Shown: positions 4,062-19,617 of the stretch, piece by piece | Layout of the letters: every line of letters begins with the position of its first letter | Numbering within the stretch: position 1 is the stretch's first letter | Origin: Candidatus Omnitrophota bacterium | Lineage (GTDB): Bacteria; Omnitrophota; Gorgyraeia; Gygaellales; Profunditerraquicolaceae | Assembly (NCBI GenBank): GCA_028712375.1 | Contig: JAQTQG010000003.1 | Coordinates: forward strand, 14,619-78,618 | Direction of reading: 5' to 3' | Length of the DNA stretch: 64,000 nucleotides | The notes under the pieces: model-generated | What the model saw: only the letters and a program-made list of their open reading frames with translations | What the model was told of the DNA's origin: nothing | Database searches by the model: none | Position numbers and translations under genes: made by a program

Positions 4062-4370
4062 TTACGTCTTTTTAAGTGGCGTACCATCTGAATCTACCAT
4101 CCTATTTGAAACAATTAGAATTAGATCGATTAACCACCACATGCCAAGACCTCCAAGCGTGCATAATTTCAATATCCCTAACCCTACGTAACCAAGATAG
4201 AATCTATCAAATCCCCAATATCCGAGAAAAAGAGAAAGCAATAACGCCACTAACCAACTTTTACCTTCTTTCTGTAGCCCACTAATTGATCTTCCAGATA
4301 CTGCACAACCGCACTTAACGCAAATAACGGCTTCATTGTCTATCTCTGCACCACATTTTTGACAAAACAT
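4062..4370 (-). CDS. Zn-ribbon + TM2-domain membrane protein
   Basis: N-terminal CQKCG...CVKCG ribbon. C-terminal [27 protein letters not shown]...[10 protein letters not shown] matches the TM2-domain pattern. Confidence 0.75.
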
Positions 4371-4392
4371 TAAAGCCTCCTTTATCTTAAAT

Positions 4393-4764
4393 TTATCTTC
4401 CAGTTATAGAATTAATTATAGTCATAGGATGGACAAACCACAGAATAAGAAGTATTGTGAAAATTGTCCCCATAATTACGCCAAACATAGCCCTACCCAT
4501 TCCGTGTTTTTCAGGGTTTCTCTTAATGTCCCTTATCGCGAGAATACCAAATAGCAAAGCAAACGGAGCTGGAATAAAAAGAATGGAAAAGAAAGCTAAA
4601 TAGCCCGCTGTAATAGCATATCCTGATCTTCCCACTGGCAATAAAGCACGAACAAGGGCATCCTGTCCTGGATCCTTGTTTATTTTTGCTCCTGTAGGAA
4701 CTCCGCACTTCATACAAACAACAGCATCGTCTTTAATTTCTCCACCGCATTTTCTACAAAACAT
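4393..4764 (-). CDS. Zn-ribbon + DUF4190-like membrane protein
   Basis: CRKCG...CMKCG ribbon. Two hydrophobic helices flank [26 protein letters not shown], the DUF4190-like pattern as I recall it. Confidence 0.65.
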
Positions 4765-4835
4765 TTTGCTCCTCCCTTTTATTTCCGAAACCAGGTCTTT
4801 TATTCCTTAGTATTTTAGCTATATGTAGATAGCTC

Positions 4836-5228
4836 TTAATTCTTTCGGACACATTCTGCCTCGACTATATTCCCCCCAGGCATTACTGTGAACATTTTAG
4901 TTCCCGTGGTTCCACAAACAGACGGTGCTGCAATAATCCCATATTCGTTAGGAAATAAATTTACTCCATAGTAGTAGCCATTCACTGTTTTGCTATTGTA
5001 AGCTTCAAAATTAGCGAAATATTGAGTAACCTCATCTCCAGTAGTAGGATATTGCCCCCCGTGGGAAGATGCATAAACCTCAAGCGCTGTAGATATATAC
5101 CTAACCGTTGCTTTTGCAGCAGCTTCATTTTTTGCTATATTATTTCCACAACCCATTACAAAACCCCCAATCAGGACACCCATTAACACAATCCAAACTT
5201 TTCTCATTCTACTCCCTCCTTTTTTCAT
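4836..5228 (-). CDS. Small lipoprotein, function unknown
   Basis: Signal peptide with lipobox (GGFVMGC). The mature part AKATVRYISTALEVYASSHGGQYP resembles pilin-like helices but lacks a prepilin cleavage motif. Confidence 0.55.
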   Translation of the reverse strand: MKKGGSRMRKVWIVLMGVLIGGFVMGCGNNIAKNEAAAKATVRYISTALEVYASSHGGQYPTTGDEVTQYFANFEAYNSKTVNGYYYGVNLFPNEYGIIAAPSVCGTTGTKMFTVMPGGNIVEAECVRKN

Positions 5229-5235
5229 ATATTAT

Positions 5236-5253
5236 CACCTAATTTAATAGGTG
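5236..5253. promoter_or_regulatory. Candidate operator: CACCTA-N6-TAGGTG inverted repeat in a divergent promoter region
   Basis: Perfect 6-bp arms separated by ATTTAA. A further TAGGTG half-site lies at 5277-5282, overlapping the possible GTG start of the XRE gene. Confidence 0.3.
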
Positions 5254-5279
5254 TAAATAGAAAAGACCGACAATAGTAG

Positions 5280-5531
5280 GTGTTCAAAGAGAGGATTTTA
5301 TTGGAAAATGTTAATATGGAAAACATCAATATCAGGTTCGGTAAACATTTGAGGGAATTAAGGAAGGAACGGGAACTGACACAAGAAGAGCTTGCTGAGA
5401 TTTCGGGGCTTGACTATAAATATATCCAACGTCTGGAAGGTAAAAAGCCTTCTTCTCCTACCCTAAATTCATTAGAAAAGATTGCTAAAGCCTTTAATAT
5501 AAGACTCTCAAAATTACTTAAATTTAATTAA
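5280..5531 (+). CDS. XRE-family HTH transcriptional regulator
   Basis: FGKHLRELRKERELTQEELAEISGLDYKYIQRLEGKKPSSPTLNSLEKIAKAFN is a canonical Cro/CI-type HTH. The start is either GTG 5280 or the in-frame ATG 5316. Confidence 0.85.
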   Translation: MFKERILLENVNMENINIRFGKHLRELRKERELTQEELAEISGLDYKYIQRLEGKKPSSPTLNSLEKIAKAFNIRLSKLLKFN

Positions 5532-6193
5532 TACCAACCATCAAGAATACACATTAGAATGCTTAATTCGTTAAGAACGGCCCGAAACTTCTTGTCCTTC
5601 TTGTAGTGCTTGTTATAAGATTCTTCACCTTGGACAACAAGATATTTCTTCTTTTTTGAATCCCAATCGAATTTAATCCTTGTGCCTTCGGCCTTAGTCG
5701 TAACAGTACGGAGTACTCCATCCTTCTTCATTCTCTTAGCATATTCTTCCTCTGGAATGCCGTCTTTACGAGCATGCTTGCCAATAAACTTCTCATGGAT
5801 CTCACGCACATAATCAATCCACTCTTGCTCTTCACTAGGCGGCTTATAACCTTCTGGCAGAATATCACTCATCTTCTTTGCATTACTCACATAACGAGAA
5901 TAAGCCGTAACATCACCAGTGCCGATCCAACGGTCAATGTCACTCTTGCGGAATATGGCTCTACCATCAGCTATACGTGAGAACGGCATCTTTTCCTGAC
6001 GCACCCAACCATCTATAGTCGTTTGTGGCACGCAAAGATATTCTGCTACTTGGACCTTACTTAAATGAATCCTTTTTGTTTTTTTGAATGTTTCGGATTC
6101 TTGGAGGGATTTTTGATCTAAAAACTCACCACAATGACGACACTTAATAGCTTCTTCTTGGATTTCTTCAGCACAAAATGGACATTTCTTCAT
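5528..6193 (-). CDS. Zn-ribbon + excisionase-type (HTH_17-like) DNA-binding protein with an uncharacterised C-terminal domain
   Basis: CPFC...CRHCG ribbon. LSKVQVAEYLCVPQTTIDGWVRQEKMPFSRIADGRAIFRKSDIDRWI fits the excisionase/MerR-like HTH_17 pattern. It starts 5 nt after the upstream gene's stop. Confidence 0.65.
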   Translation of the reverse strand: MKKCPFCAEEIQEEAIKCRHCGEFLDQKSLQESETFKKTKRIHLSKVQVAEYLCVPQTTIDGWVRQEKMPFSRIADGRAIFRKSDIDRWIGTGDVTAYSRYVSNAKKMSDILPEGYKPPSEEQEWIDYVREIHEKFIGKHARKDGIPEEEYAKRMKKDGVLRTVTTKAEGTRIKFDWDSKKKKYLVVQGEESYNKHYKKDKKFRAVLNELSILMCILDGWY

Positions 6194-6198
6194 ATCAA

Positions 6199-7509
6199 TT
6201 ATTTAGCTAAAGTAAGGCTTTTGAGTGAGTTGGCAAAAAATTCACCAATTATAGATTCTTCATAAGAGATGCTCTCACCTTTAGGTAAGATATAGAGATT
6301 CTTGATTTCATTCATAAGAGAACGGTAATTCTGAACATCAATTGAACTAGAATTAAGATTATCTCTATAGGGGTTAAGTGTTTTCATTTTTTCATTAAGA
6401 TCTTCAATTTTAGAGAAAATTTTATTAATTCTGTTAAAAATTACCTGGTTGGTATAAAACACTTCAAGCTTAATCAACTCTGGCCACATAGCATGCTTAT
6501 TTGCAGTATTAAAATCTTTATAATTCAATAATACCCAATGCGAATCTGCGTATAAATAATTATTTACCCCTATAAAAAGTAGCTGATAGTATTCTTTTAA
6601 ATCCCCATCAAGAGCAGCTAGATAATTACGGGTCACCTTTGCCTCGGGATCTGAATTTATCTTCTTTAAAACAATATCGCCTTTTCGACTCAACTCCTCT
6701 TCTTCGGATTTAATGAATTTTCTAACCTTTTCCTTAGAAATTTCAGTTACATTATCCAATAGCCATTTTGCTACTGTGAGCTTAAAATTTCTTAAACCAC
6801 CATATGAAAGATGCTCTAGGCCATCAATATCAGTAAATTTTTCTACTTCAGGCCGTAGTAAAAGACAAACTTTTATTCCTAATCCATGCATTAAACCATA
6901 CTCATAACTAACACTGTTACTTGCAGAAGATATATCTACAATTCCATATTTACAGGTTTTTATTAATTTGCAAACTTTACAAAGAACAGCTTCAGAGGTT
7001 AATTTATCCTTGGCTATGATTGGAATTAAACCAAACTTAGTTAATATTTCTTTTAAAGCTGATTCGCAATCCTCATATTTTTGATAAGGTATATCTAAAA
7101 AAACGTTATTCTCGTTAAATTCCTGTGTAATTTCATTATTCAAATCACAAGCATCCTTTGCTAAAGGCCCACAGGCATTAATAAAGACTTTTTCCGAATC
7201 CACACTTTTTTGTTTAGGCTTTGTAGCATTCTCCTTGCCACTTTCTTTTTCCAATTTTAACTCTTCTATTGCCATCTGAACTTGACTTTTCATTATGTTG
7301 AATGCTGGTTTCAAAGTATAAGAAGAAAGTGGTAAATTAATTTTGTGGGCATTTTGTATAAAATTATAGTAATATTGTTCATTAAATTTCAACAATGGTG
7401 CAACTTTGTTCGACCAATCAATACATGCTTGCTGAGAAGGAAATCCCTTTTCGACTTCCTCTATATTATAAAGATCTTGTAATTTTTTTAAAATTCCACC
7501 GAAATCCAT
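6199..7509 (-). CDS. Hypothetical protein with a central TIR / nucleoside 2-deoxyribosyltransferase-like Rossmannoid core
   Basis: 436 aa. VFLDIPY...ALKEILTKFGLIPIIAKD...CKYGIVDISSASNSVSYEYGLMHGLGIKVCLLL follows the beta-alpha pattern with a conserved Glu after the third strand, as in TIR/NDT-like domains. The flanking N- and C-terminal regions are unrecognised. Confidence 0.5.
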   Translation of the reverse strand: MDFGGILKKLQDLYNIEEVEKGFPSQQACIDWSNKVAPLLKFNEQYYYNFIQNAHKINLPLSSYTLKPAFNIMKSQVQMAIEELKLEKESGKENATKPKQKSVDSEKVFINACGPLAKDACDLNNEITQEFNENNVFLDIPYQKYEDCESALKEILTKFGLIPIIAKDKLTSEAVLCKVCKLIKTCKYGIVDISSASNSVSYEYGLMHGLGIKVCLLLRPEVEKFTDIDGLEHLSYGGLRNFKLTVAKWLLDNVTEISKEKVRKFIKSEEEELSRKGDIVLKKINSDPEAKVTRNYLAALDGDLKEYYQLLFIGVNNYLYADSHWVLLNYKDFNTANKHAMWPELIKLEVFYTNQVIFNRINKIFSKIEDLNEKMKTLNPYRDNLNSSSIDVQNYRSLMNEIKNLYILPKGESISYEESIIGEFFANSLKSLTLAK

Positions 7510-7558
7510 CTTTTAATATTTTTAAATATTTGTGGAGTAACCAGCAAGTAAGTTAACA

Positions 7559-8317
7559 TTACCCTACTTTAACTTCTTTCAGTATTTTCTGGTAAATACA
7601 GAAATCACAATCAGCACTATATTCAGGAACTACGGGACCCACCAAGCATTTATACATCTCAATAATCTTAGCCTCAATCCAAGAATCATTTCCGTCATAA
7701 GGTATTATTTTGATATCGAAATCAAGCTTTGCACTAAAGGTATCCCTGTCAGTAAGCCCATTGCAATACACAAAATAACCGGTTGGAGATACATTAAAAC
7801 CGTTTTTTCTGAATAACCACTGGTATATTTCCATCTGCCTCTTATAAGATATCTGCCAATCAGCATCTATGCTTACTTCTTCTTCCTTTGATGTGCTCTT
7901 GTAATCTACGATAAATAGCTGGCCATCCGATGAGGCCCAAACGTCATCTATCCCCCCTGTAAGTAAAAGATTTGTCGGTATGTGCAGATATTCAATACCA
8001 CCATGAAGAGCATCCCGCCAGATATTCAGCTTATCGTGCTTAAAAGGAACCGCCTTGATCCCATTTGCTTCCATAAGAGGATGGCTTATCTGTTTATTCC
8101 GATAGACATCGAATTCTTTCTTCAGTAACTTGTCTACTGCTGAATTTAGTGTAAAAGGGAACCCGGGTGGTTGCCCTACGCCTAATCTTCTGTCTAAATA
8201 GAAGCAACGTGGGCAATTTATGAATAGTTCAATTTTGGAGCGGCTTAGTTTAAATGGAATTTTACTATGCGGATCGAATAAATTCTTAGTTTTTCTACCA
8301 GTATAGTATTTAGACAT
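7559..8317 (-). CDS. PD-(D/E)XK nuclease, Cas4/RecB-like, with four terminal Cys
   Basis: GGIDDVW...LFIVDYKST (D...D-x-K), QMEIYQWLF (QxxxY), CPRC near the N-terminus and CDFC near the C-terminus (possible Fe-S or metal site). Confidence 0.8.
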   Translation of the reverse strand: MSKYYTGRKTKNLFDPHSKIPFKLSRSKIELFINCPRCFYLDRRLGVGQPPGFPFTLNSAVDKLLKKEFDVYRNKQISHPLMEANGIKAVPFKHDKLNIWRDALHGGIEYLHIPTNLLLTGGIDDVWASSDGQLFIVDYKSTSKEEEVSIDADWQISYKRQMEIYQWLFRKNGFNVSPTGYFVYCNGLTDRDTFSAKLDFDIKIIPYDGNDSWIEAKIIEMYKCLVGPVVPEYSADCDFCIYQKILKEVKVG

Positions 8318-8461
8318 AGACCTACAGACTATTATTCCCGATTCTTCTTTGGCTATCTGCCGCCGTAGAACTTAAACTAGGCTTGGATTTAGGTTATCTA
8401 TCCATCAGCTTAAAAGCTTCCCGCTTTCAACAATGCTGATGTAGTGAAAAAACTATAAATC

Positions 8462-10351
8462 TTAAGAAATAGTTACAACCGCTTCTGCTTCTGACCAAGT
8501 GTTTATCAAATCCAATATTTTTTGAATTTGAATCGGATAATCTTCTAATGAAAGATCTTCATATTTCATAAAAGCAGCTCCGATCTTGCCATGTTTTTCT
8601 ACTTGATTTGTAGCTATGCCTATAATGTTTTCAAGTTCTGGTGTAATTTTGATGATCTTCCCAATATTTTTATCCAAAGAACCATCAATAAAATCGTTTT
8701 CTTTAAACATTCTGAGCTCAGATTCTTCTTTGTCTGTTTTATTAGGTTTATTTTCTGGAAAGTTAATAGGGTCTATATCATGGATAGCAACGTAAGGAAC
8801 TTTGAACTTATTAAGTACTCGCATAAATATATGTATATTGGTTTTTCCGCCACATTCAACTACGCATATGTTTTTAGCAACGAAGTCATATTTTTTATCT
8901 TTTACAGTAAATTTTGTTGCCCAGAAAGGAACTATAAATTTTTCGGTATCACCTTCAACCAATACTACTTTCTTAGAGAAAAACATTTCACTACGCGATA
9001 AGTCAAAAAGGCTTAAATAACGGAAAACTTTTTTTAACCTATTGTTTTCCTGTGTGGTTTCAGCAGCAAATATATCTCCAACAAATTGAAAGGTATTTGT
9101 TGGACCTTTTTCCTCACGCCCAACGATCACGATATTCTTGTATTCAAACATATCTACAAAAAAGTTAGAATGTGTACAGGCCAATATTTGATCAGTAGTT
9201 GCGATATTCCTTAAAACTTCAATCATCTTTCTTTGGCCATTAGGATGTAAATATAGTTCTGGTTCCTCAATTGCAAGTATAAAATTTTTCACCAAGGCTT
9301 CCGGTTGATCTTCTTCTACAATTACAGTACTTACTGTTTTAGCATAAGCTCTTATATAAGCTAAAATTAGTGCACGTTGAAGACCATGTCCCTTAGAATC
9401 AATCGAAGTAGGCAAAGCGTCATCTAAAGTAATATTCACATCTTTAAATAAATCAACAAGTTCGGGAGTGACGATTTCAATACCAACCTTTGTTCCTGGC
9501 ATACTTTCGCTTATTATGCCTGTAATAGTGCTTTCGAAATCTTTTATTTCCTGTAATCGGTCTGAGTCATCTCCAGTACCTGATTTATTTAAATATTTCT
9601 TCAACCCTTCGAGCTGGTTCTTAACCTCTTCAAATTTTGGATTCTTTAAAACTATCCTATTTGTTAAATCGGTTACTAACTTCCCTAATACAGTTTGCTG
9701 TGTAGTCTTAGATTCATCACATGCATCTTTTACAGCAGGAACCAAATAAAATTTAGGCAACAAATCAGCAAATACTTCTTTGAGGCCTGCAGGATTCTTT
9801 ATCCAATCTGGATCACCAAATTCCACTTTTCCGTCCTCTATACACTTCATAACCCCTTCTTTATATGAAGCCTGGGTCACGGTTCCCTTATCAGTTTTAA
9901 AATAGTCTGGTAAATTTTTATCTTTCACAATTTTTGCAATATCCCCTTTATATTCATCAAATCTTGATAGATCAAAATGGAGCTCGCGAGGCTTAGCTTG
10001 CCATCCATAAAACGTCGTTTCATATTTTTCACTCTGATTATTATACTCTACGACCTTTTTCACTCGAATTGCATGGTCATAGATCCAATGCTTAAGATAC
10101 TTTTGTTTTTCATCATACTCAGTTAATCTATCAAATGTCAAAATAATAGTGATTGGTTCATTATTCTTTTTGAAATAAAAATATTCCTCGTTTATCCCCT
10201 TAACCGAATCTTGATAGAATAATTCTATTGCTCGAAGTATATTGGATTTACCTGCATTATTCTCTCCAATAAACATAGCCAATGAATCTATTTCAATTTC
10301 TATGCTGTCTATGGACTTAAATTTGTGTATTTCGACTTTACGTAACTTCAT
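8462..10351 (-). CDS. OLD-family nuclease (ABC-type ATPase + Toprim)
   Basis: Walker A GENNAGKSN. LAIEEPELYLHP (Walker B/D-loop). C-terminal Toprim motifs VVLVEGDTEKF, VVECGGKTN, AIHDIDP. 629 aa. Confidence 0.9.
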   Translation of the reverse strand: MKLRKVEIHKFKSIDSIEIEIDSLAMFIGENNAGKSNILRAIELFYQDSVKGINEEYFYFKKNNEPITIILTFDRLTEYDEKQKYLKHWIYDHAIRVKKVVEYNNQSEKYETTFYGWQAKPRELHFDLSRFDEYKGDIAKIVKDKNLPDYFKTDKGTVTQASYKEGVMKCIEDGKVEFGDPDWIKNPAGLKEVFADLLPKFYLVPAVKDACDESKTTQQTVLGKLVTDLTNRIVLKNPKFEEVKNQLEGLKKYLNKSGTGDDSDRLQEIKDFESTITGIISESMPGTKVGIEIVTPELVDLFKDVNITLDDALPTSIDSKGHGLQRALILAYIRAYAKTVSTVIVEEDQPEALVKNFILAIEEPELYLHPNGQRKMIEVLRNIATTDQILACTHSNFFVDMFEYKNIVIVGREEKGPTNTFQFVGDIFAAETTQENNRLKKVFRYLSLFDLSRSEMFFSKKVVLVEGDTEKFIVPFWATKFTVKDKKYDFVAKNICVVECGGKTNIHIFMRVLNKFKVPYVAIHDIDPINFPENKPNKTDKEESELRMFKENDFIDGSLDKNIGKIIKITPELENIIGIATNQVEKHGKIGAAFMKYEDLSLEDYPIQIQKILDLINTWSEAEAVVTIS

Positions 10352-10708: not shown

Positions 10709-12220
10709 CTATTCTGGAGCTCCCATAATAAAACCTGTGGTAAGCCCTTTTTCTTTAAACCAACTTTTTAATATGCCCTTACTTCCAGCAATTGCCGTAT
10801 CAATTTCTGAATCCGTTGGGGCACTCCACATTTGCCAGTTAAATAATCTTGCTAAACATGCTTTTATTTTTGAGTAGTCGCTATCCACTAAATCCCTATA
10901 AAATGGCTTAGCTTTCTCATCTCCATCATGAATATCTAATTTCGCACATATTGCGTCTCGCAATAGTTCTGACCAGGCCATAATTGATTTTGAAGAAAAT
11001 ATCCTACTGAGTTTACGCTGATTTTGATCACTAGGCGCGGCTGCAGGATTCCAATGTGAAAGCGCAAGTTCAAAAATCATATTCATTAAAGCAATAACAT
11101 TCTTAAACTCTGATTCTCTCCTATATTTTTCTGAAAACATATCATCATCAAGAGGCTCGGTATAAAGAAAACAAGCAAGGATTGACTTAGAGAGCATATC
11201 CACAGTAAGCGGTTGTTCATTGGAGCTCCTATTACTTGTTGAAACGAGTGGTTTGAGTTTATTAGACTCATCTTCAAGAATAGAATTATATAAGTAACTA
11301 CGGAAACGCTTGTTTCGCTCGCCCCGCGTAAGAGATATGTCTTTCTGCTCTAGAAATGACAAAAAACCACTTTCATTTTTTTTCTCAATATCTTCTCTAT
11401 TTTTATACTCTTCAAAATCTTTCCCAAATTGATTCCCTAATTTAAGAATTAATACTGACGAAAAAAATCTTGTTTGGGCGAATTTATCATGTGCTGATAT
11501 ATTAGCTTGATTAAGCATCCTCAAGTCGGGATCAAGATAGATCTTGCATTCAAATGTCTTTCTCCCATTCCACAATATCGCAGCTGCCTTGTGTTGACCA
11601 TCAAAAAGCAATATCCTATTATTTGAAACACGTCCTATTGAAGGTTGCAAAACTGGATAAATCTGGAAATGACGAAACATTTCAAATACTTTATCAAAAA
11701 TCAAATAACGTGGTTGTAGGCCCAAATGTTCATTATCATCATCATCGCTGTTAAGAATTGATATGGGTAAATTACCATAAAAATATTTCCAACCGGTTCG
11801 CGGACAGGTTTGGATATTAAACTGAGATGAAAAGGAGTGGTGTTGTAAAGTAACTGTTTTATCTTGGACATTAATAGCAACCGCTTCTCCAAAAGACTCA
11901 ATATCACCTGCCTTTTTTAAGTGCGTAATTAGATTACGCAATGTTAATCTATCGCCTTCTTCAAAAAATGATTCAAGTCGAAGTTTTATACGAAAATCCC
12001 CTAGAGGCAACATTCCCTTCGCCTTATTATGGTATTCGCACATAGGTGCAATATTATCAAGTTCTGATTGCCCATCTCGAGCATAAGCCCAAATATGGTC
12101 AAAATGAACCCTCTCCCCTTCCGGGATTGCATGCCCATTGGCAAAGCAAATACGCCCATGTCGATTTAAAATTATTTTCTTTTCATCATCATTGATTTGC
12201 CTTTTTAGAGTAATTGCCAT
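10709..12220 (-). CDS. HNH nuclease fused to a DGQHR-type (here DGQHK) ParB/DndB-like domain
   Basis: N-terminus: VHFDHIWAYARDGQSELDNIAPMCEYHNKAKG (HNH). Middle: RILLFDGQHKAAAILW (DGQHR-like motif). GGAGGT SD upstream of the ATG. Confidence 0.8.
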   Translation of the reverse strand: MAITLKRQINDDEKKIILNRHGRICFANGHAIPEGERVHFDHIWAYARDGQSELDNIAPMCEYHNKAKGMLPLGDFRIKLRLESFFEEGDRLTLRNLITHLKKAGDIESFGEAVAINVQDKTVTLQHHSFSSQFNIQTCPRTGWKYFYGNLPISILNSDDDDNEHLGLQPRYLIFDKVFEMFRHFQIYPVLQPSIGRVSNNRILLFDGQHKAAAILWNGRKTFECKIYLDPDLRMLNQANISAHDKFAQTRFFSSVLILKLGNQFGKDFEEYKNREDIEKKNESGFLSFLEQKDISLTRGERNKRFRSYLYNSILEDESNKLKPLVSTSNRSSNEQPLTVDMLSKSILACFLYTEPLDDDMFSEKYRRESEFKNVIALMNMIFELALSHWNPAAAPSDQNQRKLSRIFSSKSIMAWSELLRDAICAKLDIHDGDEKAKPFYRDLVDSDYSKIKACLARLFNWQMWSAPTDSEIDTAIAGSKGILKSWFKEKGLTTGFIMGAPE

Positions 12221-12288: not shown

Positions 12289-12501
12289 TCAATGATGCTC
12301 TCTTTCGTATAGAGTGTGCAGTATCTTATATAATCTTTTGCCGTTTGTAACTTGTCCATCACTATTAACAGATACAATCAAATCCTTAGTTGCTAGCCTT
12401 ATCCCGTCATCACCATATTTGAACATTCTTACAACATCACTTAAATAGATAGCAAATCTACCTTTGGGACTTTGAATAATCTTACCTTTTGCACCAGGCA
12501 T
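12289..12501 (-). CDS. 70-aa hypothetical protein
   Basis: GAGGAGG SD 5 nt upstream of the ATG. Co-directional with and upstream of the HNH-DGQHK gene. No motif recognised. Confidence 0.5.
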   Translation of the reverse strand: MPGAKGKIIQSPKGRFAIYLSDVVRMFKYGDDGIRLATKDLIVSVNSDGQVTNGKRLYKILHTLYEREHH

Positions 12502-12553: not shown

Positions 12554-12886
12554 TTAAGCATATTTCTCTTTGTGCATTTCATAATACAAATCAAATATTT
12601 TCTTTGCAATCTTAGAACCTGTGCTATTTTTAATAATACTCATGGTATTCTCTACTGAACCTATCCAAACTTCTCCTTTATGATTTAAAACGGGTCCATG
12701 TTTTGTTAATTGCCTCACAACCCATTCCCAGTCTTTTTGAAATTCCTCAGGAAAATCTTTTGGTTCTAAAACATGGCAGATTAAATATGATCCAATGAGC
12801 CTTGACCTTACGTCTTTTTGACCAACAGCTAAAGCATAAACAACTTCAAATAATTTCTCTTGTACATAAGAATAACTTTTTCTCAT
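12554..12886 (-). CDS. 110-aa hypothetical protein
   Basis: First ORF of the co-directional array. Apparently helical, with no recognisable motif and no obvious SD. Confidence 0.45.
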   Translation of the reverse strand: MRKSYSYVQEKLFEVVYALAVGQKDVRSRLIGSYLICHVLEPKDFPEEFQKDWEWVVRQLTKHGPVLNHKGEVWIGSVENTMSIIKNSTGSKIAKKIFDLYYEMHKEKYA

Positions 12887-13088
12887 AATAAATATCTATA
12901 AGCAAAAAAACAACCCTATTTTAGAGAGTTGCCTTAGATTTGACCTAGTTTAACCTCATTACCGCTCCTATTTAAATATAAGTTATTATCCTACCCCCAT
13001 AGCCCAAAATCAACCCTTTTTTAACTGTTCTAGGATAATAAATGTTAAATGAATTTAGTATTCTACACAAATTTCGAAGTAGTAATAC

Positions 13089-13139: not shown

Positions 13140-13988
13140 ATGAAGTTTGCCGATGTAAATAAGACCATAATAAAGCTGTGCAAAGATAACAGTTTGGATT
13201 TCTTAGCTGAATGCGAAGCTATCCAATCTGAAGTTGATGCCTGCTCTCTACCTGAAATTCTCGACCATTTAGATAATGCAGGTATCATACCCGAATGTTT
13301 TGATCACGATTCTACGGAAGAAAAGTTGTTCGCAAAGTATTGTGACTCTTTATTAGCTCGTGGGTTACGAGAAATAGGATTAAACGCATATACAATACCA
13401 GAACGCAGTGATGCGGCTGATGTTCAAGGGAAGGGTAGCAATTACACTATTGTTGGAGATGCTAAAGCGTTTCGTCTTAGCAGAACAGCAAAAAACCAAA
13501 AAGATTTTAAGGTCGAGGCTCTTGATAAATGGAGAAATGGATCCGATTTCGCTGTATTAGTAAGCCCTCTTTACCAGTACCCAAATACAAATAGCCAGAT
13601 TTACTCACAAGCAATAAGGTATAATGTTACCCTATTATCTTATACCCACCTAGCTTTCCTAATAAGAAATAGAAATAATATAAAGAATGGCTCTCTTAGG
13701 GGATTATGGGAAATCGGAAAAAAGCTCTCTATTGGTAAAAGCGCCAAATCATACTGGGGATTAATTGACGCTAAAATGCTAGAAATTACCGGGAAGGATA
13801 AAAAGGATTGGGATAGCGCTATAGAAACAGAATACAAATGCTTAGTTCAGAGAGCTAAGGACGAGATTAAGTATTGGGAAGATGAAAAAGCAAAGATATT
13901 AAAATTGTCTCACGATGCGGCAATACAAGAACTAATTAAGGCTAGGAAAATAACAGAAAAGGTCGGAGTTATTAAGCAGTTTATATAG
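13140..13988 (+). CDS. Putative type II restriction endonuclease (PD-DxK)
   Basis: 282 aa, convergent with and 7 nt from the methyltransferase stop. AADVQGKGSNYTIVGDAKAF fits D...(D/E)xK. The specific family was not recognised. Confidence 0.55.
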   Translation: MKFADVNKTIIKLCKDNSLDFLAECEAIQSEVDACSLPEILDHLDNAGIIPECFDHDSTEEKLFAKYCDSLLARGLREIGLNAYTIPERSDAADVQGKGSNYTIVGDAKAFRLSRTAKNQKDFKVEALDKWRNGSDFAVLVSPLYQYPNTNSQIYSQAIRYNVTLLSYTHLAFLIRNRNNIKNGSLRGLWEIGKKLSIGKSAKSYWGLIDAKMLEITGKDKKDWDSAIETEYKCLVQRAKDEIKYWEDEKAKILKLSHDAAIQELIKARKITEKVGVIKQFI

Positions 13989-13995
13989 CGTTGAT

Positions 13996-16200
13996 TTAAA
14001 GAGATTTTCTTTTTGTGATTTTGAAGCCTGAATAGAGTGTTGAGATGTAGTCTGAAATACTCATAATCATATCTGCATCACATCCACCCCCAGTGATGTT
14101 CTTATAGTTGACCAGTAACCCAATTCCCTGTGCGAATATTGCCAACCCAATGTCTTTCTCGCTCCATCCCGCTTCTTTCAACACATTACCATAATCAGAT
14201 ACGTAAGAAGATACCTTAGCAATTATTTCGGGGAAAGATATTGATGATTTCTCTTCCATTGTTTTATGACAGACGAAGGTAATGCAAGTATCTATTGCTT
14301 CTGATGTCATGCCGCGAGGTCTTGCTTTTCTTTCTATACTAAGTGGTTGCACGCTTGTGATTATAAAATTAGTGTCTCTAAACGCCCGAATAATTGCGTC
14401 CCATCCGCCTAGTGAGCTATGGCTATAAATAAACGATAGGACGCCGTCATATTTCAAAACTCTCTCAGCTTCTTTTATCGCCTTGCCTAATTCTAAGCAA
14501 TACTTATCGTGAGCTTCAAGGGCCGATTGACTACGAAATGCTGAAGCAACTAATTCGGAACCAAAGCTAGTGTCTTGTTTGTTAAATAAATCCGGATCAA
14601 CATTTTTTAATAAAATTCTTTTCCACGCATAAAAGAAATCCGCTAATATGCTGTAATAAATATTATCATAGTATGGGGGATCTGTTATAATTGCATCAAA
14701 ATAATTGCTCTTAAATGGGAGGTTTTGGGCAATTCCACAGTTTACTTCCGGTTTATATGGAAATTTTTCGATGGAGCTAATGCCTGAAATGATACGGTCG
14801 AGCTTATCCCAAAGATTAGCTGGGCCATTCATTATGGGGTCTATTTCGCCATAATCCCAAAGCATGGGAACGCCTGGACCGCAAAAAGCTCGCCCCATCT
14901 GTTCATTTTGCGAAATCCACATAGATAAACGACAATTCCAATCCACAAGTTGATCAATTAAACTCGCCAATACAGAAATAGCAAAATCCGCCAACTCCTT
15001 TGAATTCTGCTCCTTCAATAACCGATATTCATCTTTCAGACACTTTATCAAAGACAGTAGAACCACCCTCTGCCTTTTATTGACAAAATCACTATGAGTT
15101 TCTATGCCGTAAACTGAGGGGTTCACAATGCCGGACCATTTGGGCAATTTCGTATTTGGAAGACTGCTTTCTAAAGATTTTAATAAATCATTTTCAAGAT
15201 GAGAGATCTTAACGGCTGAGGGAATCAGCAAATCGTTGTTTTCTATAAGCAAAAACTCTTTCCCGGATTTTTCTTTCCGCTTAACAAAAGCAATTAGCTC
15301 ATCTCGAGTGTTGCTAATATCAACTTTTTCAACTATATGAGAGCATTTTGGGCATTTAGCAGACCCATTTCGACCTTCCCAATTTGAGTTATGTTCATAT
15401 TTGTCATCCACTTCCTTAATCCCAATATGCTGTCGATCCTTGGAATTATTTATAATAATTGCTATTCGCTTATTTTTCTTGCGTGACAGCCAGGGTCTTT
15501 TTATTAAATAATATACATATTTACATTTTGGGCATTTTAATGAATACGTCCAGAAATACACTACAGGTGGTCTTTGTTTCGTCTCGGATATCTCACCCTG
15601 CTTACTTCTTGATACCCCTCCCTTCCTCAATGGAAACAATTCATTTGTTGCTTCTTCTAAAGACTTTAAAACACGAATGCCAGATTTCCTTACAATATCT
15701 TCGGCACTTCTTAAATCAACTTTCTGCGAGTATTCAAGATTTGCTTTTTGTATAAAAACAGACAATTCATTCGCATCAATAGAGTATGCTTTGGCACCTA
15801 TGTTGGCTATTTCTAATGGTATTGTTCCTCCACCACCAAACATATCTAGGGCCTTTGGAGGAACTACGTATTGTTCTTTAATAATAGCTCGGGCTTTATC
15901 TATGGCACTTTTGTTTGCATCCCCCGCTAACTCAACCATTATTTCATACATTTTAGGTGTACTTATTTTACATAGAGAAGCAAACGCAAGTATCCTCATA
16001 GCAGAATGAGGTCTTCGAGCCCACCAAACGTGGAGTGTATGCGACGTTTCTCCACTTCGGTATCGTTCCGCAAGACCAGCTATTGAGGCTTCGTAATGTA
16101 AAAGTCCACTATCTATCAAACGATGTTCCGAAGTGTTTGGGATCAGAGCAATTTCAGGACTTGATTGGGTTTTATTTTGACACATACTACTTATTGGCAT
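13996..16200 (-). CDS. DUF1156-type DNA methyltransferase (DPPY, N6-A/N4-C class) with an internal Zn ribbon
   Basis: LHVWWARRPHSAMR (DUF1156 signature as recalled), DMFGGGGTIPLE (SAM motif I), ITDPPYYDNIYY (motif IV), and CPKC...CPKC ribbon in the middle. Confidence 0.9.
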   Translation of the reverse strand: MPISSMCQNKTQSSPEIALIPNTSEHRLIDSGLLHYEASIAGLAERYRSGETSHTLHVWWARRPHSAMRILAFASLCKISTPKMYEIMVELAGDANKSAIDKARAIIKEQYVVPPKALDMFGGGGTIPLEIANIGAKAYSIDANELSVFIQKANLEYSQKVDLRSAEDIVRKSGIRVLKSLEEATNELFPLRKGGVSRSKQGEISETKQRPPVVYFWTYSLKCPKCKYVYYLIKRPWLSRKKNKRIAIIINNSKDRQHIGIKEVDDKYEHNSNWEGRNGSAKCPKCSHIVEKVDISNTRDELIAFVKRKEKSGKEFLLIENNDLLIPSAVKISHLENDLLKSLESSLPNTKLPKWSGIVNPSVYGIETHSDFVNKRQRVVLLSLIKCLKDEYRLLKEQNSKELADFAISVLASLIDQLVDWNCRLSMWISQNEQMGRAFCGPGVPMLWDYGEIDPIMNGPANLWDKLDRIISGISSIEKFPYKPEVNCGIAQNLPFKSNYFDAIITDPPYYDNIYYSILADFFYAWKRILLKNVDPDLFNKQDTSFGSELVASAFRSQSALEAHDKYCLELGKAIKEAERVLKYDGVLSFIYSHSSLGGWDAIIRAFRDTNFIITSVQPLSIERKARPRGMTSEAIDTCITFVCHKTMEEKSSISFPEIIAKVSSYVSDYGNVLKEAGWSEKDIGLAIFAQGIGLLVNYKNITGGGCDADMIMSISDYISTLYSGFKITKRKSL

Positions 16201-16519: not shown

Positions 16520-17104
16520 TTAAACACTAAGTAGCTCGGCACACTCCGCCAGATCTTCCTTCGTTACGCCCGTGTAGATCTGCGTCGTAGAAACGAACTT
16601 GTGTCCCAAAAACTCCTGCACCTTCCGGATGTTGCCACACTTTCGCATTAACTCCGTCCCAACCGTGTGCCTCAGACAGTGTGGTGAATATCTTCCTTCC
16701 AAGCCACTTTCACTAACCCATTTATTAAGGTTTAACTGCACTGCCCTCTGGGTAATTCTTTTGTTGTTCCTTGATAAAAATAAGGGTTCGCTCAAGGAGA
16801 AGCCTTCATCCTTTGCCTTTCTCTGCCTAATGTATTTATCTATGTGGGCTCTAATATCCTTGTTTAATGGTATTTGCCTAATCCTGTCGCCCTTGCCTTT
16901 TATCTCCAACACTTCCTTTGACGAATAGCCGTTGTGCACATCCTTGGCATTAAGGTTGATCGTTTCACTAAGGCGTAATCCAGTATTAAGCATAAGGTCA
17001 AACATACAATAATCACGCCAGGCTTTCCTGCTGTCGGCAAGTGTCTTTAAGAATTGTTTCTTTTGTTCAGAAGTCAGATATCTTATCGTGTTCCTCTTGG
17101 CCAT
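16520..17104 (-). CDS. Short tyrosine recombinase (Xer/phage-integrase catalytic domain only)
   Basis: NTGLRLSE, HCLRHTVGTEL, LGHKFVSTTQIYTGV (R..HxxR..Y). The likely start is ATG 17104 (GAGGTG SD); the track ORF extends to 17134. Confidence 0.9.
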   Translation of the reverse strand: MAKRNTIRYLTSEQKKQFLKTLADSRKAWRDYCMFDLMLNTGLRLSETINLNAKDVHNGYSSKEVLEIKGKGDRIRQIPLNKDIRAHIDKYIRQRKAKDEGFSLSEPLFLSRNNKRITQRAVQLNLNKWVSESGLEGRYSPHCLRHTVGTELMRKCGNIRKVQEFLGHKFVSTTQIYTGVTKEDLAECAELLSV

Positions 17105-17105
17105 T

Positions 17106-17528
17106 TCACACCTCTTCGTTAATATACTGCTCAACCTTAACCCTTACCTTTTCTTTTAATACCTGAAACTCTTCTGAGAACTCGCCATTATCACTAAAAT
17201 CTCTGTCTTTCCATAAATTGTCATACGCCTGGCAGAGAAAATATTGGTATTCTTTATTTTGCGGGGACATCTCAATAGCCTTAAGGATAATTTCAGTGCC
17301 TGTCCTTAAAGAAGTAACCCAGAAAGTTGTAAGCAGAATATATGATTGTTCGTAAAGAAGCTCTGCTCTCTGTTCTTTTGAGAGGCCGTAATTCTGCAAT
17401 AATTTATAGACCCTATCAAGCCTCTCAGATTTTTGTGTATCTCCATCAGGTTCTTGAGCAAAGAGATTAACTAAAAATAATAACGACATCGAAACTATTA
17501 AAATAACTATTATCTGTTTTGTATTCAT
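17106..17528 (-). CDS. Small secreted helical protein
   Basis: GGAGGTG SD upstream of ATG 17528. Signal-like MNTKQIIVILIVSMSLLFLVNLFAQ. No enzymatic motif. Confidence 0.5.
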   Translation of the reverse strand: MNTKQIIVILIVSMSLLFLVNLFAQEPDGDTQKSERLDRVYKLLQNYGLSKEQRAELLYEQSYILLTTFWVTSLRTGTEIILKAIEMSPQNKEYQYFLCQAYDNLWKDRDFSDNGEFSEEFQVLKEKVRVKVEQYINEEV

Positions 17529-17576: not shown

Positions 17577-18971
17577 CTATGAATTAGCAAAAAAACCTAT
17601 CTTGGTTTTATTGTCCTTAACAAAGATTCCGTCCTGTTCTAGACTCGCTCCAAACAAAAGGTCATTCATTGTAATAATATTCCTTTTCTCTTGAACCAGC
17701 CGTCGCAGGGCGTGGAAGACAGCATTCTTGATGTAGCCACCACTAAACTGAAATTGTCTGGCCAGAACAGCAAAATCAACACCTTGGGCAAGAGTTACCT
17801 TGCTTGGAATATGCGATCGCCAAATTTCTTTGCGTATCTTCTCATCAGGCAAATCAAATTTAACCTTTAAAGTAACTCTGCGTTCAAGTGCAGGATCAAG
17901 CAAATTATCCATGTTCGAAGTTAAGATTACCACTCCTTCAAACCGTTCAATTTCCTGTAGCATAATATTAACAAACCTAATATCGTGTTCTTGGGCTGCG
18001 AAGTTGCGGTTATATAAAATAGAATCCGCCTCGTCAATACAGATAACAACATTATTTTGCTTTGCTGACTTAAAAATAGAAGATATTTGTTTATCGGTTT
18101 CACCAAACCAACGTGAATTTATTTTGGGAAATTCAACAACAAGCAACTTCTTCTTAAGATGTTTTGCTATTGCCTCAGATAACATCGATTTTCCCGTGCC
18201 GGGCGGACCGTAAAAGAGGAAAACCAATCCTTTGCCATTTTTAATTGTTTCTTCTACACCAAGATCTTCAAGTCCTTTATCCTGCAACCCGGATAATAAG
18301 AAACTGACGTTTTTCTTCACATCGAGAGATAGCTTAACATCTTCAAGAGAATATGCCGGATCCTTTAAAAAACCAACCTCTTCGCAAGGGTGTAAATCTT
18401 TTTTATTTTCTGCCCTTCCAGGTCTAGATTCTTTATACTCCCCACTTATCATCCTAGAAAAAACGTCCAACAAAGACGAACTCATCCCGAAACTGACTAC
18501 GGCCGAGTTGTGGTTGTTTCGATAATATGGGTACAAAATAGAATATTTTAAAAGATTGGCATTTCGGTTAAAATAACGAGACAACCCCATTCTCCCGATT
18601 ACAGAATCATTTAAGTCAAAGATCCTAAGGAGCAGATCCCTTGAACAGATATTCTCTTTTAGGTGCAAGAACTCCAAATAAAGGTAATATAGGAGTATTT
18701 GCTTTTCAAAGATATCCAAACCGTATAGCGAGGCAGTTTTTTCTAACGCAAACTTACTGCCCTTAGACATGGAATCCTGTACCCTTTGCCAAAACAAAAC
18801 TTCTTTTGTCTTTATTGTTGAGTCCAATTCTGATACATTCTTGCGGAATGCCTCTACATCATCCTTAGATTTCTTAATAAGAATAATTCTTTTGTTTTGG
18901 TAAAGTTCGCAGATCTTGAAATATTCTTCGATGTATTCTTGGTCACCTGAAAGAAAATTATTTTCCGGCAT
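17577..18971 (-). CDS. Classical-clade AAA+ ATPase with an uncharacterised N-terminal domain
   Basis: FLFYGPPGTGKSMLSEAIA (Walker A), VICIDEADS (Walker B), LTSNMDNLLDPALERRV (second region of homology). AAGGAG SD upstream of ATG 18971; the track ORF is over-extended to 19037. Confidence 0.9.
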   Translation of the reverse strand: MPENNFLSGDQEYIEEYFKICELYQNKRIILIKKSKDDVEAFRKNVSELDSTIKTKEVLFWQRVQDSMSKGSKFALEKTASLYGLDIFEKQILLYYLYLEFLHLKENICSRDLLLRIFDLNDSVIGRMGLSRYFNRNANLLKYSILYPYYRNNHNSAVVSFGMSSSLLDVFSRMISGEYKESRPGRAENKKDLHPCEEVGFLKDPAYSLEDVKLSLDVKKNVSFLLSGLQDKGLEDLGVEETIKNGKGLVFLFYGPPGTGKSMLSEAIAKHLKKKLLVVEFPKINSRWFGETDKQISSIFKSAKQNNVVICIDEADSILYNRNFAAQEHDIRFVNIMLQEIERFEGVVILTSNMDNLLDPALERRVTLKVKFDLPDEKIRKEIWRSHIPSKVTLAQGVDFAVLARQFQFSGGYIKNAVFHALRRLVQEKRNIITMNDLLFGASLEQDGIFVKDNKTKIGFFANS

Positions 18972-19617
18972 TACCTTTTCTCCTTTCTTTCTGCACAAAC
19001 TTATCAAAATCCTCAACTGTCTTTTTGAGCCTTTCATTCATCTGATCATTCATTAACTTTGTTAAGGCTATCGCTTTTTCATATTTCTTGCCATACCAAA
19101 TAAGTTTCTTCGTAGGTTTACCTTTGTAACACCACCGCTTAAAACTCGCCGCTTGCTTTATCAGTTCAGGCACATTGATTACGCCAAATTTCTTATAAAT
19201 ACCGCTTAATCTAGAACTCTCATAAGCAAGATCAAAACAGTTTCGACATCCAAAATAATTGCCGACCCTGTAAAGTACCCCTACCCGCCTATCACAGCCT
19301 AAGATTGACAAAGGACACTTAAACCAATATCTGACACCGCCGTAATTACAAGAAGTTGCGACTAAATCGACCCTGTATTCGAAATTCTGATATTCTCCAT
19401 TAGGCTGAAGAATAGAGTAATAGAAATCTAAGAATGGATCATTCTTGTTTATAAACGATACTACAATATGGATACCGTTTTTAAAGACTTCCCCATTATA
19501 AGGAATATCAATAATCCCAAAATCACTGGCTTCTAAAAAATCATTAAGTTTTAGTGATAATATTGGAATCTTGTAAAGGTTATCTGCCACCAACTTGGGG
19601 CTTTTATCTCTGTCCAT
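18958..19617 (-). CDS. Zn-ribbon protein, function unknown, overlapping the AAA+ gene by 14 nt
   Basis: GAGGTG SD upstream of ATG 19617. CNYGGVRYWFKCP...CDRRVGVLY...FGCRNCFDLAYESSR is a 4-5 Cys cluster. Confidence 0.55.
   Translation of the reverse strand: MDRDKSPKLVADNLYKIPILSLKLNDFLEASDFGIIDIPYNGEVFKNGIHIVVSFINKNDPFLDFYYSILQPNGEYQNFEYRVDLVATSCNYGGVRYWFKCPLSILGCDRRVGVLYRVGNYFGCRNCFDLAYESSRLSGIYKKFGVINVPELIKQAASFKRWCYKGKPTKKLIWYGKKYEKAIALTKLMNDQMNERLKKTVEDFDKFVQKERRKGNAGK

Follow-up and report, generated by a model that had tools for sequence, protein, structure and literature searches.

A 64,000-nucleotide stretch of DNA from a Candidatus Omnitrophota bacterium (contig JAQTQG010000003.1 of assembly GCA_028712375.1, positions 14,619 to 78,618 of the forward strand; the whole stretch is referred to as "the window" hereafter) carries, on its minus strand at 10709..12220, a gene for a 503-residue protein (the "target"), in which an N-terminal HNH nuclease domain is followed by a module predicted to have the ParB/sulfiredoxin fold and by a large alpha-helical C-terminal domain. 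Our best reading, drawn by analogy, is that the target works like the GmrSD, SspE and BrxU enzymes with the order of the domains reversed, while standing outside those families, and the explanation that we favour, as a somewhat probable one, is that it would be a nucleoside triphosphate (NTP)-gated defence nuclease acting on foreign DNA as a single, self-sufficient polypeptide. What carries this reading is an HNH domain whose identity is unambiguous, a D-G-Q-H-K (DGQHK) motif conserved at the place where ParB-fold proteins bind phosphate, a family of near-constant length under long purifying selection, and the lack of any conserved partner gene across the loci surveyed.

Gene and domain organization

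According to the open reading frame (ORF) list of the window, the target gene starts with ATG and comprises 503 codons; a GGAGG ribosome-binding site (RBS) lies 8 nt 5' of the start codon, and homologues keep the N-terminus MAITLKRQ. Its parts are the following (aa, amino acid residues):

10709..12220, minus strand: complete target gene, 503 aa and a stop codon (10709-10711), from the ORF list, the RBS, the homologues and the AlphaFold model
11981..12181, minus strand: HNH (beta-beta-alpha-metal) nuclease domain, aa ~14-80
12095-12100, minus strand: D41-H42 catalytic dyad
12053-12055, minus strand: N56 of the HNH domain
12026-12031, minus strand: H64-N65 of the HNH domain
11777..11965, minus strand: linker helices and a small beta-rich subdomain, aa ~86-148, without family assignment (model secondary structure)
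11525..11776, minus strand: predicted ParB/sulfiredoxin-fold core, aa ~149-232
11708-11770, minus strand: box-I-like L-P-I-x-I-L-N-S-D-D...L-Q-P-R, aa 151-171
11588-11602, minus strand: DGQHK (aa 207-211) of the box-II-like F-D-G-Q-H-K
11486-11515, minus strand: box-III-like L-N-Q-A-N-I-S-A-H-D, aa 236-245, at the start of the C-terminal domain
10712..11524, minus strand: alpha-helical C-terminal domain, aa ~233-503 (~270 residues; model)

The linker region (aa ~86-148), which the model resolves into a helix at 94-103 and strands at 115-119, 122-127, 130-135 and 145-152, is the most variable stretch of the family alignment. The C-terminal domain is helical from H233 on, with a predicted local distance difference test score (pLDDT) of mostly 85-97 and a low-confidence stretch at 245-259, and carries the family-invariant E283, R368, E371 and W465; fold searches returned no significant or convincing structural match in the PDB for these ~270 residues, whose role might be that of DNA or target recognition, or of dimerisation.

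The HNH domain

An earlier note on this DNA had described the ORF at 10709-12220 as containing an HNH motif, and this proved real: the motif of the target reads V-H-F-D41-H42 ... N56-I-A-P-M-C61-x-x-H64-N65, and D41, H42, N56, H64 and N65 are, together with C25, H30, C61 and F206-D-G-Q-H-K211, invariant in an alignment of 28 homologous sequences. C25, H30, C61 and H64 are the likely Zn ligands. The Pfam model PF01844, when run on the target protein alone, remains below threshold (19.1 bits against a cutoff of 21.4, E=0.0015); it does, however, match 41 of the 49 divergent relatives, many above the cutoff and at best with E=1.3e-11, which makes the family unambiguously a member of the HNH endonuclease superfamily. 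The beta-beta-alpha-metal fold is present, with the catalytic His, the structural Asn and the final metal-ligand His/Asn all conserved. The best sequence match of the target in the PDB is the Gme HNH nicking endonuclease, and neither the full-length nor the central-region profile found anything significant there beyond HNH.

The ParB-fold module and the DndB question

The sequence LLFDGQHKAAAILW (L-L-F-D-G-Q-H-K-A-A-A-I-L-W) corresponds to aa 204-217 of the target protein. The motif that it contains is found in all 28 close and in 46 of the 49 divergent relatives, with Lys in place of the Arg of DGQHR in 74 of the 77 sequences, and is thus no chance occurrence. The earlier note was right in placing a DGQH(K) after the HNH, although the spacing is ~165 residues from the D-H dyad rather than the ~190 that it gave.

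GERR in ParB and GCHR in sulfiredoxin (Srx) occupy the same strand-to-helix junction, where they form the phosphate-binding motif, and it is at such a junction (strand 202-207, helix 209-217) that DGQHK lies in an AlphaFold2 model built on the family alignment (mean pLDDT 84.4). Foldseek matches of this model include ParB-CDP, Noc and Srx, all at a probability of ~1.0 and with modest E-values. On the evidence of this predicted structure, the central module is of the ParB/Srx fold, with a Gly-containing phosphate-binding motif at the junction and Lys for the usual Arg. Profile comparison of the central region with the PDB gave Noc at E=0.44 and ParB at E=1.5, neither of them significant, the same alignments laying I-P-x-x-x-I-x-x-N..Q-P-R on box I of ParB and L-L-F-D-G-Q-H-K-a-a-A on L-I-A-G-E-R-R-W-R-A. 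Counterparts of the nucleotide-pocket motifs of ParB are kept in the module, i.e., I-P-x-x-x-I-x-x-(N/D)...Q-P-R, F-D-G-Q-H-K for G-E-R-R, and (E)-x-N-x-x-A-H. Taken together, the profile, model and fold searches uphold the claim that an HNH and a DGQH(K) module of the ParB superfamily are joined in one polypeptide.

Whether this module is of the "DndB type", as the earlier note had it, is a more delicate matter. The DGQHR model TIGR03187 matches the target at E=0.05, with 13.3 bits against a cutoff of 58.85, but the weak match is co-linear (aa 200-421 on profile positions 96-273 of 276); at E<=5, it also finds 4 of the 49 relatives (best E=0.0075). Among the better matches in the viral structure library BFVD are two proteins named after sulfur modification ("Sulfur modification protein" and "DNA-sulfur modification-associated protein", i.e., DndB family; E=3e-4 and 1e-2), with alignments of about 300-420 columns. 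PF14072 (DndB), PF03235 (DUF262) and ParBc, by contrast with the HNH model, gave no Pfam match in the target or in any of the 49 relatives, even at E<=5. The only recurring non-HNH Pfam match is DUF6551 (PF20188), which is found in 7 of the 49 relatives (best E=8.1e-5) and, in one of them (P0176), spans the DGQHK core with 14.2 bits against a gathering threshold of 26.8, a score that none of the matches checked reaches; the target protein itself has no DUF6551 match.

The signature motifs of DndB are a QR pair, an invariant DGQHR and FxxxN (PMC4619093). Set beside these, the target has Q169-P-R171, DGQHK instead of DGQHR, and, in the core family, L236-x-x-x-N240, which is gone in about half of the divergent relatives; boxes I and II of the ParB/Noc CTPases (cytidine triphosphate, CTP) fit the module, motif by motif, just as well as DndB does. 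The target is not a member of DndB/DpdB because it scores below the cutoff, has K for R and lies in the wrong genomic context. We conclude that the central module forms a separate DGQHK branch within the ParB superfamily, with a distant likeness to DGQHR/DUF6551 proteins, and is not a DndB family member; the label "DndB type" is weakly supported and should be softened accordingly.

Family size, conservation and selection

A search of 5.8 billion proteins yielded 865 homologues of the target with a near-constant length of 502-507 aa, the best 120 of which, in the same length range, are 60-84% identical to it. Their sources include Omnitrophica (a 100% match), Anaerolineales, Actinobacteria, Solidesulfovibrio and Leptospira, and those bearing a name are called nothing more than "HNH endonuclease" or "hypothetical". 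When 1.84 billion cluster representatives (clusters at 50% identity) were searched exhaustively with a profile, this grew to 749 clusters at E<=1e-3, among them many full-length relatives of 20-36% identity with the same layout, in which C25, N56, D159, P170, R171, F206-K211, E283, R368, E371 and W465 are near-invariant. Of 185,579 species-representative genomes, 97 contain a relative; these belong to more than 15 phyla, with one Nanoarchaeota metagenome-assembled genome (MAG) in addition. Some divergent relatives of 360-420 aa (P0219, P0221, P0260 and P0264) align with the ParB-fold and helical parts alone, the HNH domain being absent; these could be truncated gene calls or genuine forms, the latter possibly pointing to an ancestor of the fusion.

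Searched by tblastn, the family is absent from 72,556 PLSDB plasmid entries and from 50,697 INPHARED phage genomes, each of which returned just short HNH-only matches (E>=0.01), and the 2.9 million viral contigs of IMG/VR hold a single relative, full length and 32% identical, at 4259-5731 of locus L095 (IMGVR_UViG_3300037160_000193), on a contig of 53.6 kb. A plasmid or phage origin of the family was rejected on these grounds; the gene is a host-side one, with a location biased towards defence islands and R-M (restriction-modification) operons.

The GC content of the gene (0.28-0.62) follows that of its host flanks (r=0.89), lying on average 7 points below it, and the four-fold degenerate third positions are 25-27% identical (i.e., random and saturated) between copies of 45-65% protein identity. 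Saturated synonymous sites and a host-tracking GC content imply that the conservation stems from long purifying selection over the whole length of the protein, and a recent horizontal sweep, which might have been thought to lie behind the high identity, was rejected on the same evidence. A few copies, e.g., those in L068, L074 and L087, are split by frameshifts, the target ORF being called there as fragments.

Genomic contexts of the homologues

Neither dnd, dpd nor ssp genes were met with in a context survey of 89 loci, and homologues thus do not sit in dnd/dpd clusters, an arrangement that would have spoken for a regulatory role. ORFs of at least 60 aa from these loci were clustered all against all, whereby no co-occurring family was found (only antisense shadows of the target gene recur); a conserved partner gene was therefore rejected, and the "stand-alone" character proposed for the gene holds. 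A conserved flank or target site was likewise rejected, as blastn of the 400-bp flanks of 63-65 loci related only a few pairs from related genomes.

The immediate neighbours are heterogeneous, with an enrichment of Type I restriction-modification (R-M) genes in about 10% of the loci. In L019, L031, L032, L040, L053 and L077, the start codon of the target follows the end of hsdR by 0-15 bp; four of these six loci (L031, L032, L040 and L053) also have hsdM downstream, beginning -4 to +60 bp from the stop codon. Since the copies embedded in Type I operons are scattered over the protein tree, this arrangement arose or was lost repeatedly. Other neighbours comprise Shedu SduA_C, AbiU2 HEPN and toxin-antitoxin (TA) cassettes, or TIR, ApeA, DUF87 and an integrase together; further contexts are type III-like R-M, type IIB-like/I R-M, transposases and a guanylate-cyclase gene beside thrS.

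The contig JAIZBH010000002.1 of Leptospira sanjuanensis (L001, 1-17512) has the target family in a same-strand array of 17 cassette units, its own being at 8001-9512, with at least 17 repeat copies of 45-190 nt, ending in GTTAGAC/GTTAGGC/GTTATGC-type sequences, between the cassettes. These encode PIN/VapB, BrnT, HigB, RelB/YafQ, Shedu SduA_C, AbiU2 HEPN and HNH proteins as well as the target family. The array looks like that of an integron, and no integrase is present within the 17.5 kb of L001. That the target gene makes up one cassette of its own here argues for the single gene being the functional unit.

Direct repeats flank the gene in a Spirochaetales MAG (L013, gene at 511-2013; 327 nt, 98% identity), in Turneriella (L015; 90 nt, 97%) and in L005 and L029 (38-50 nt), and may be scars of cassette arrays or of recombination. 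In an actinobacterial lineage and on the contig of the closest relative (L008/L009/L010 and L091/L092), the island with the target abuts thrS; in L008, infC-rpmI-rplT also stand at the thrS border, and DUF4145 genes lie on both sides of the target. This suggests that the side of the threonyl-tRNA synthetase gene is a recurrent integration hot spot.

Comparison with known systems

GmrSD, SspE, BrxU and TgvAB, which are type IV and phosphorothioate (PT)-sensing restriction enzymes, share with the target a D-G-Q-x-(R/K) module of the ParB superfamily combined with an HNH/His-Me nuclease, and they too are one- or two-gene systems without a cognate methylase, residing in defence islands (in BREX, in the case of BrxU). 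The order of the domains is, as the earlier note had recognized, reversed: in GmrSD, SspE and BrxU, an N-terminal DUF262 (PF03235, DGQQR) precedes a C-terminal DUF1524 (PF07510), whereas the nuclease of the target is N-terminal and PF01844-type, and neither DUF262 nor DUF1524 gave a match in the target or in any of the 49 relatives at E<=5. TgvAB is a GmrSD-family type IV system inside a Type I R-M cluster, the two having been proposed to be complementary (PMC11411939), and the hsdR-target-hsdM arrangement mirrors this embedding.

With DndB/DpdB and other DGQHR-domain proteins, the target has in common the D-G-Q-H core, the upstream Q-(P)-R and a downstream hydrophobic-x-x-x-N (L236...N240); it differs from them in being fused to HNH, in its DGQHK and in never being found in dnd/dpd operons across the 89 loci. 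No dnd, ssp or dpd genes are present in the window either, just as had been noted: the PADLOC models for Dnd, Ssp, Dpd and Pbe matched neither the 10 island proteins nor any of the 38 other ORFs that are 180 aa or longer. Unlike the ParB/Noc/KorB CTPases, the target has neither a helix-turn-helix (HTH) nor a centromere-binding domain, lacks a ParA partner and has DGQHK for GERR.

In a 2025 survey, fusions of the type "ParB-CTPase fold + HNH" appear as novel, uncharacterised ones, and ParB-fold proteins outside ParB are reported to bind CTP, ATP or GTP (adenosine and guanosine triphosphate), among them phage proteins of the DUF6551 family, for which binding of CTP or ATP has been demonstrated (PMC12704722). 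DUF6551 proteins, in contrast to the target, are phage-borne and, as far as described, lack HNH. The present family is probably missing from that survey because the latter is Pfam-based and the Pfam ParB models miss the family. In the library searched, no relevant literature was found that names DGQHK or the HNH-ParB architecture.

Proposed function and alternatives

In the NTP-gated defence nuclease that we favour, the ParB-fold module would bind, and perhaps hydrolyse, a nucleoside triphosphate, whose use would gate dimerisation or DNA clamping and thereby control nicking or cutting by the HNH domain, by analogy with the DUF262 NTPase controlling the DUF1524 nuclease in GmrSD, SspE and BrxU and with the CTP switches of ParB/Noc; the helical C-terminal domain would provide target recognition. 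As there is no cognate methylase and the gene is nonetheless kept in many hosts, the enzyme must not act on host DNA, and this would be achieved most simply by a need for modification of the foreign DNA or by activation during infection only. The lack of a methyltransferase, together with the repeated insertion between hsdR and hsdM, makes foreign DNA missed by classical R-M the likeliest target: hypermodified phage DNA, in a type IV-like manner, would be a candidate, the alternative being a back-up triggered during infection. Dependence on modification (the type IV logic) is our favoured sub-model, although, judged over all readings, a tentative one.

Several points weigh against a defence nuclease of this kind. 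No known modification-reading domain (SRA, EVE, YTH, PUA, wH) was detected in the target, and no PADLOC model matches it (PADLOC-DB v2: zero families at E<=0.1). ParB-type profile support is sub-threshold throughout, the assignment coming mainly from the predicted structure, and the Lys where DGQHR, DGQQR and GERR have Arg might mean that the nucleotide pocket is altered. Housekeeping or unrelated genes make up roughly half of the immediate neighbours, which makes the defence island a tendency and not a rule, and whole-length purifying selection of this strength is unusual for a defence gene.

A bolder form of the same idea, which we regard as unlikely, would make the family an unrecognised class of single-chain restriction enzymes, in which an NTP switch of the ParB type would load the protein onto DNA as a clamp that closes or slides, as CTP does for ParB/Noc, and so take the HNH along the DNA until foreign DNA is found and cut; the family would then be an ancient one, constrained over its whole length and repeatedly taken into Type I operons, whose immunity it would complement.

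That the target is a toxin of the abortive-infection or back-up kind, and no restriction enzyme, is similarly doubtful. Here, the module would respond to a change of the nucleotide pool or to a neighbouring R-M system being inactivated, as PrrC does within EcoprrI, and free a non-specific HNH that destroys host and phage DNA alike. Embedding inside Type I R-M operons is the arrangement of PrrC/RloC, and the tight embedding seen here, with its gaps of 0-15 bp, would fit it, as would the company of TA cassettes and Abi-type genes, the want of a detected DNA-modification reader domain, and the versatile NTP binding of ParB-fold proteins (PMC12704722). About 90% of the copies, however, do not lie beside a Type I system, so that guarding R-M could be no general trigger, and the closest analogues combining a ParB fold with a His-Me nuclease (GmrSD, SspE, BrxU, TgvAB) are direct restriction enzymes.

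That the target is a selfish mobile HNH gene of the free-standing homing type, whose ParB-like and helical domains bind a site at which a nick promotes the spread of the gene, seems improbable. A single gene with a patchy occurrence in more than 15 phyla as well as in a Nanoarchaeota MAG, found inside operons and beside transposases, flanked by direct repeats in L005, L013, L015 and L029 and with a nicking HNH as its best sequence match in the PDB, does resemble such an element; yet no flank or target site is conserved among 63-65 loci, the repeats that flank the spirochaete copies are accounted for by those of cassette arrays, the family is missing from the phage and plasmid collections, in which homing HNH genes are plentiful, saturated synonymous sites and host-ameliorated GC content bespeak long residence and selection for protein function, and pseudogenised copies are a minority.

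Lastly, a DndB-like DNA-binding regulator, or a housekeeping repair or segregation factor, with an HNH that is structural or DNA-binding, is a very remote prospect, for although there are weak DGQHR/DndB-like similarities, strong purifying selection and the precedent of DndB being a transcriptional repressor (PMC12704722), the catalytic D41, H42, N56, H64 and N65 are invariant, presence in 97 of 185,579 species genomes is incompatible with housekeeping, and there are neither dnd/dpd/ssp genes nearby (in the window or at other loci) nor a conserved operon to regulate.

Surroundings of the gene in the window

The target lies in a low-GC block at ~2-20.5 kb (GC content of 0.32-0.39 vs. 0.40-0.49 for most other parts of the window), which holds all of the defence genes, as would fit an island acquired by horizontal transfer. 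Its borders carry no tRNA gene; the nearest ones are at 45.2-45.5 kb and 62.0 kb. Two small minus-strand ORFs, 12289-12501 (70 aa, with a good RBS) and 12554-12886 (110 aa), lie immediately upstream of the target; they have no family matches and stand beside no homologue of the target at the other loci; an operon of the target with them was rejected, any relevance being local to this genome. Upstream of these small ORFs, in the divergent region facing a HindIII-like gene, there are a hairpin resembling a terminator and an inverted repeat of 24 nt (12907-12935; 12970-13054). A run of co-oriented defence-type genes (5528-10351, minus strand) follows downstream of the target. The neighbouring genes are:

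5528-6193, minus strand: zinc-ribbon and MAD1-like HTH protein
6199-7509, minus strand: 436-aa protein with faint TIR/PDC-S35 similarity
7559-8317, minus strand: Cas4-like PD-(D/E)XK nuclease, in place of the usual UvrD-type GajB
8462-10351, minus strand: OLD/Gabija-GajA-like ATPase-TOPRIM protein (PADLOC Old, E=2.8e-88)
13140-13988, plus strand: HindIII-family restriction endonuclease (Pfam, E=1.3e-84)
13996-16200, minus strand: 734-aa DUF1156-type methyltransferase (PADLOC MTase_II, E=4e-197)
16520-17134, minus strand: 204-aa tyrosine recombinase (XerC/D-like), catalytic domain only, apparently truncated N-terminally
17577-19037, minus strand: 486-aa AAA+ ATPase

The HindIII-like and DUF1156 ORFs are opposite in orientation, their ends being 8 bp apart, and apparently form a complete type II R-M system unrelated to the target, while the IetA/TRIP13-like PADLOC matches probably stem from the AAA+ ATPase. 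Tyrosine recombinases related to the one listed occur near the target gene in L038, L054 and L060. Two adjacent paralogous genes for small proteins (4062-4370 and 4393-4764, minus strand) share an initial zinc-ribbon motif, MFC-x-KCG..., and a 63-nt direct repeat (75% identity) at their 5' ends, the C-terminal halves of the products being hydrophobic.

Significance

The concept of a ParB-fold NTPase joined to a His-Me nuclease in a defence enzyme is a familiar one, while the family itself is unnamed, unannotated, widespread though rare, and unusually constrained. Because its domain order and DGQHK signature fall outside the current Pfam, NCBIfam and PADLOC models, it is invisible to the pipelines by which defence genes are annotated. 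Should it be active, the family would be a compact, one-gene addition to the nucleotide-gated anti-phage nucleases, and a small, well-folded and widespread HNH enzyme with a predicted nucleotide switch might also attract practical interest, as a nickase that can be controlled. The repeated insertion of the gene between hsdR and hsdM, its occurrence as an integron-like cassette and the strong constraint on its sequence make it a test case for effectors embedded in R-M systems and for the reuse of the ParB switch beyond chromosome segregation.

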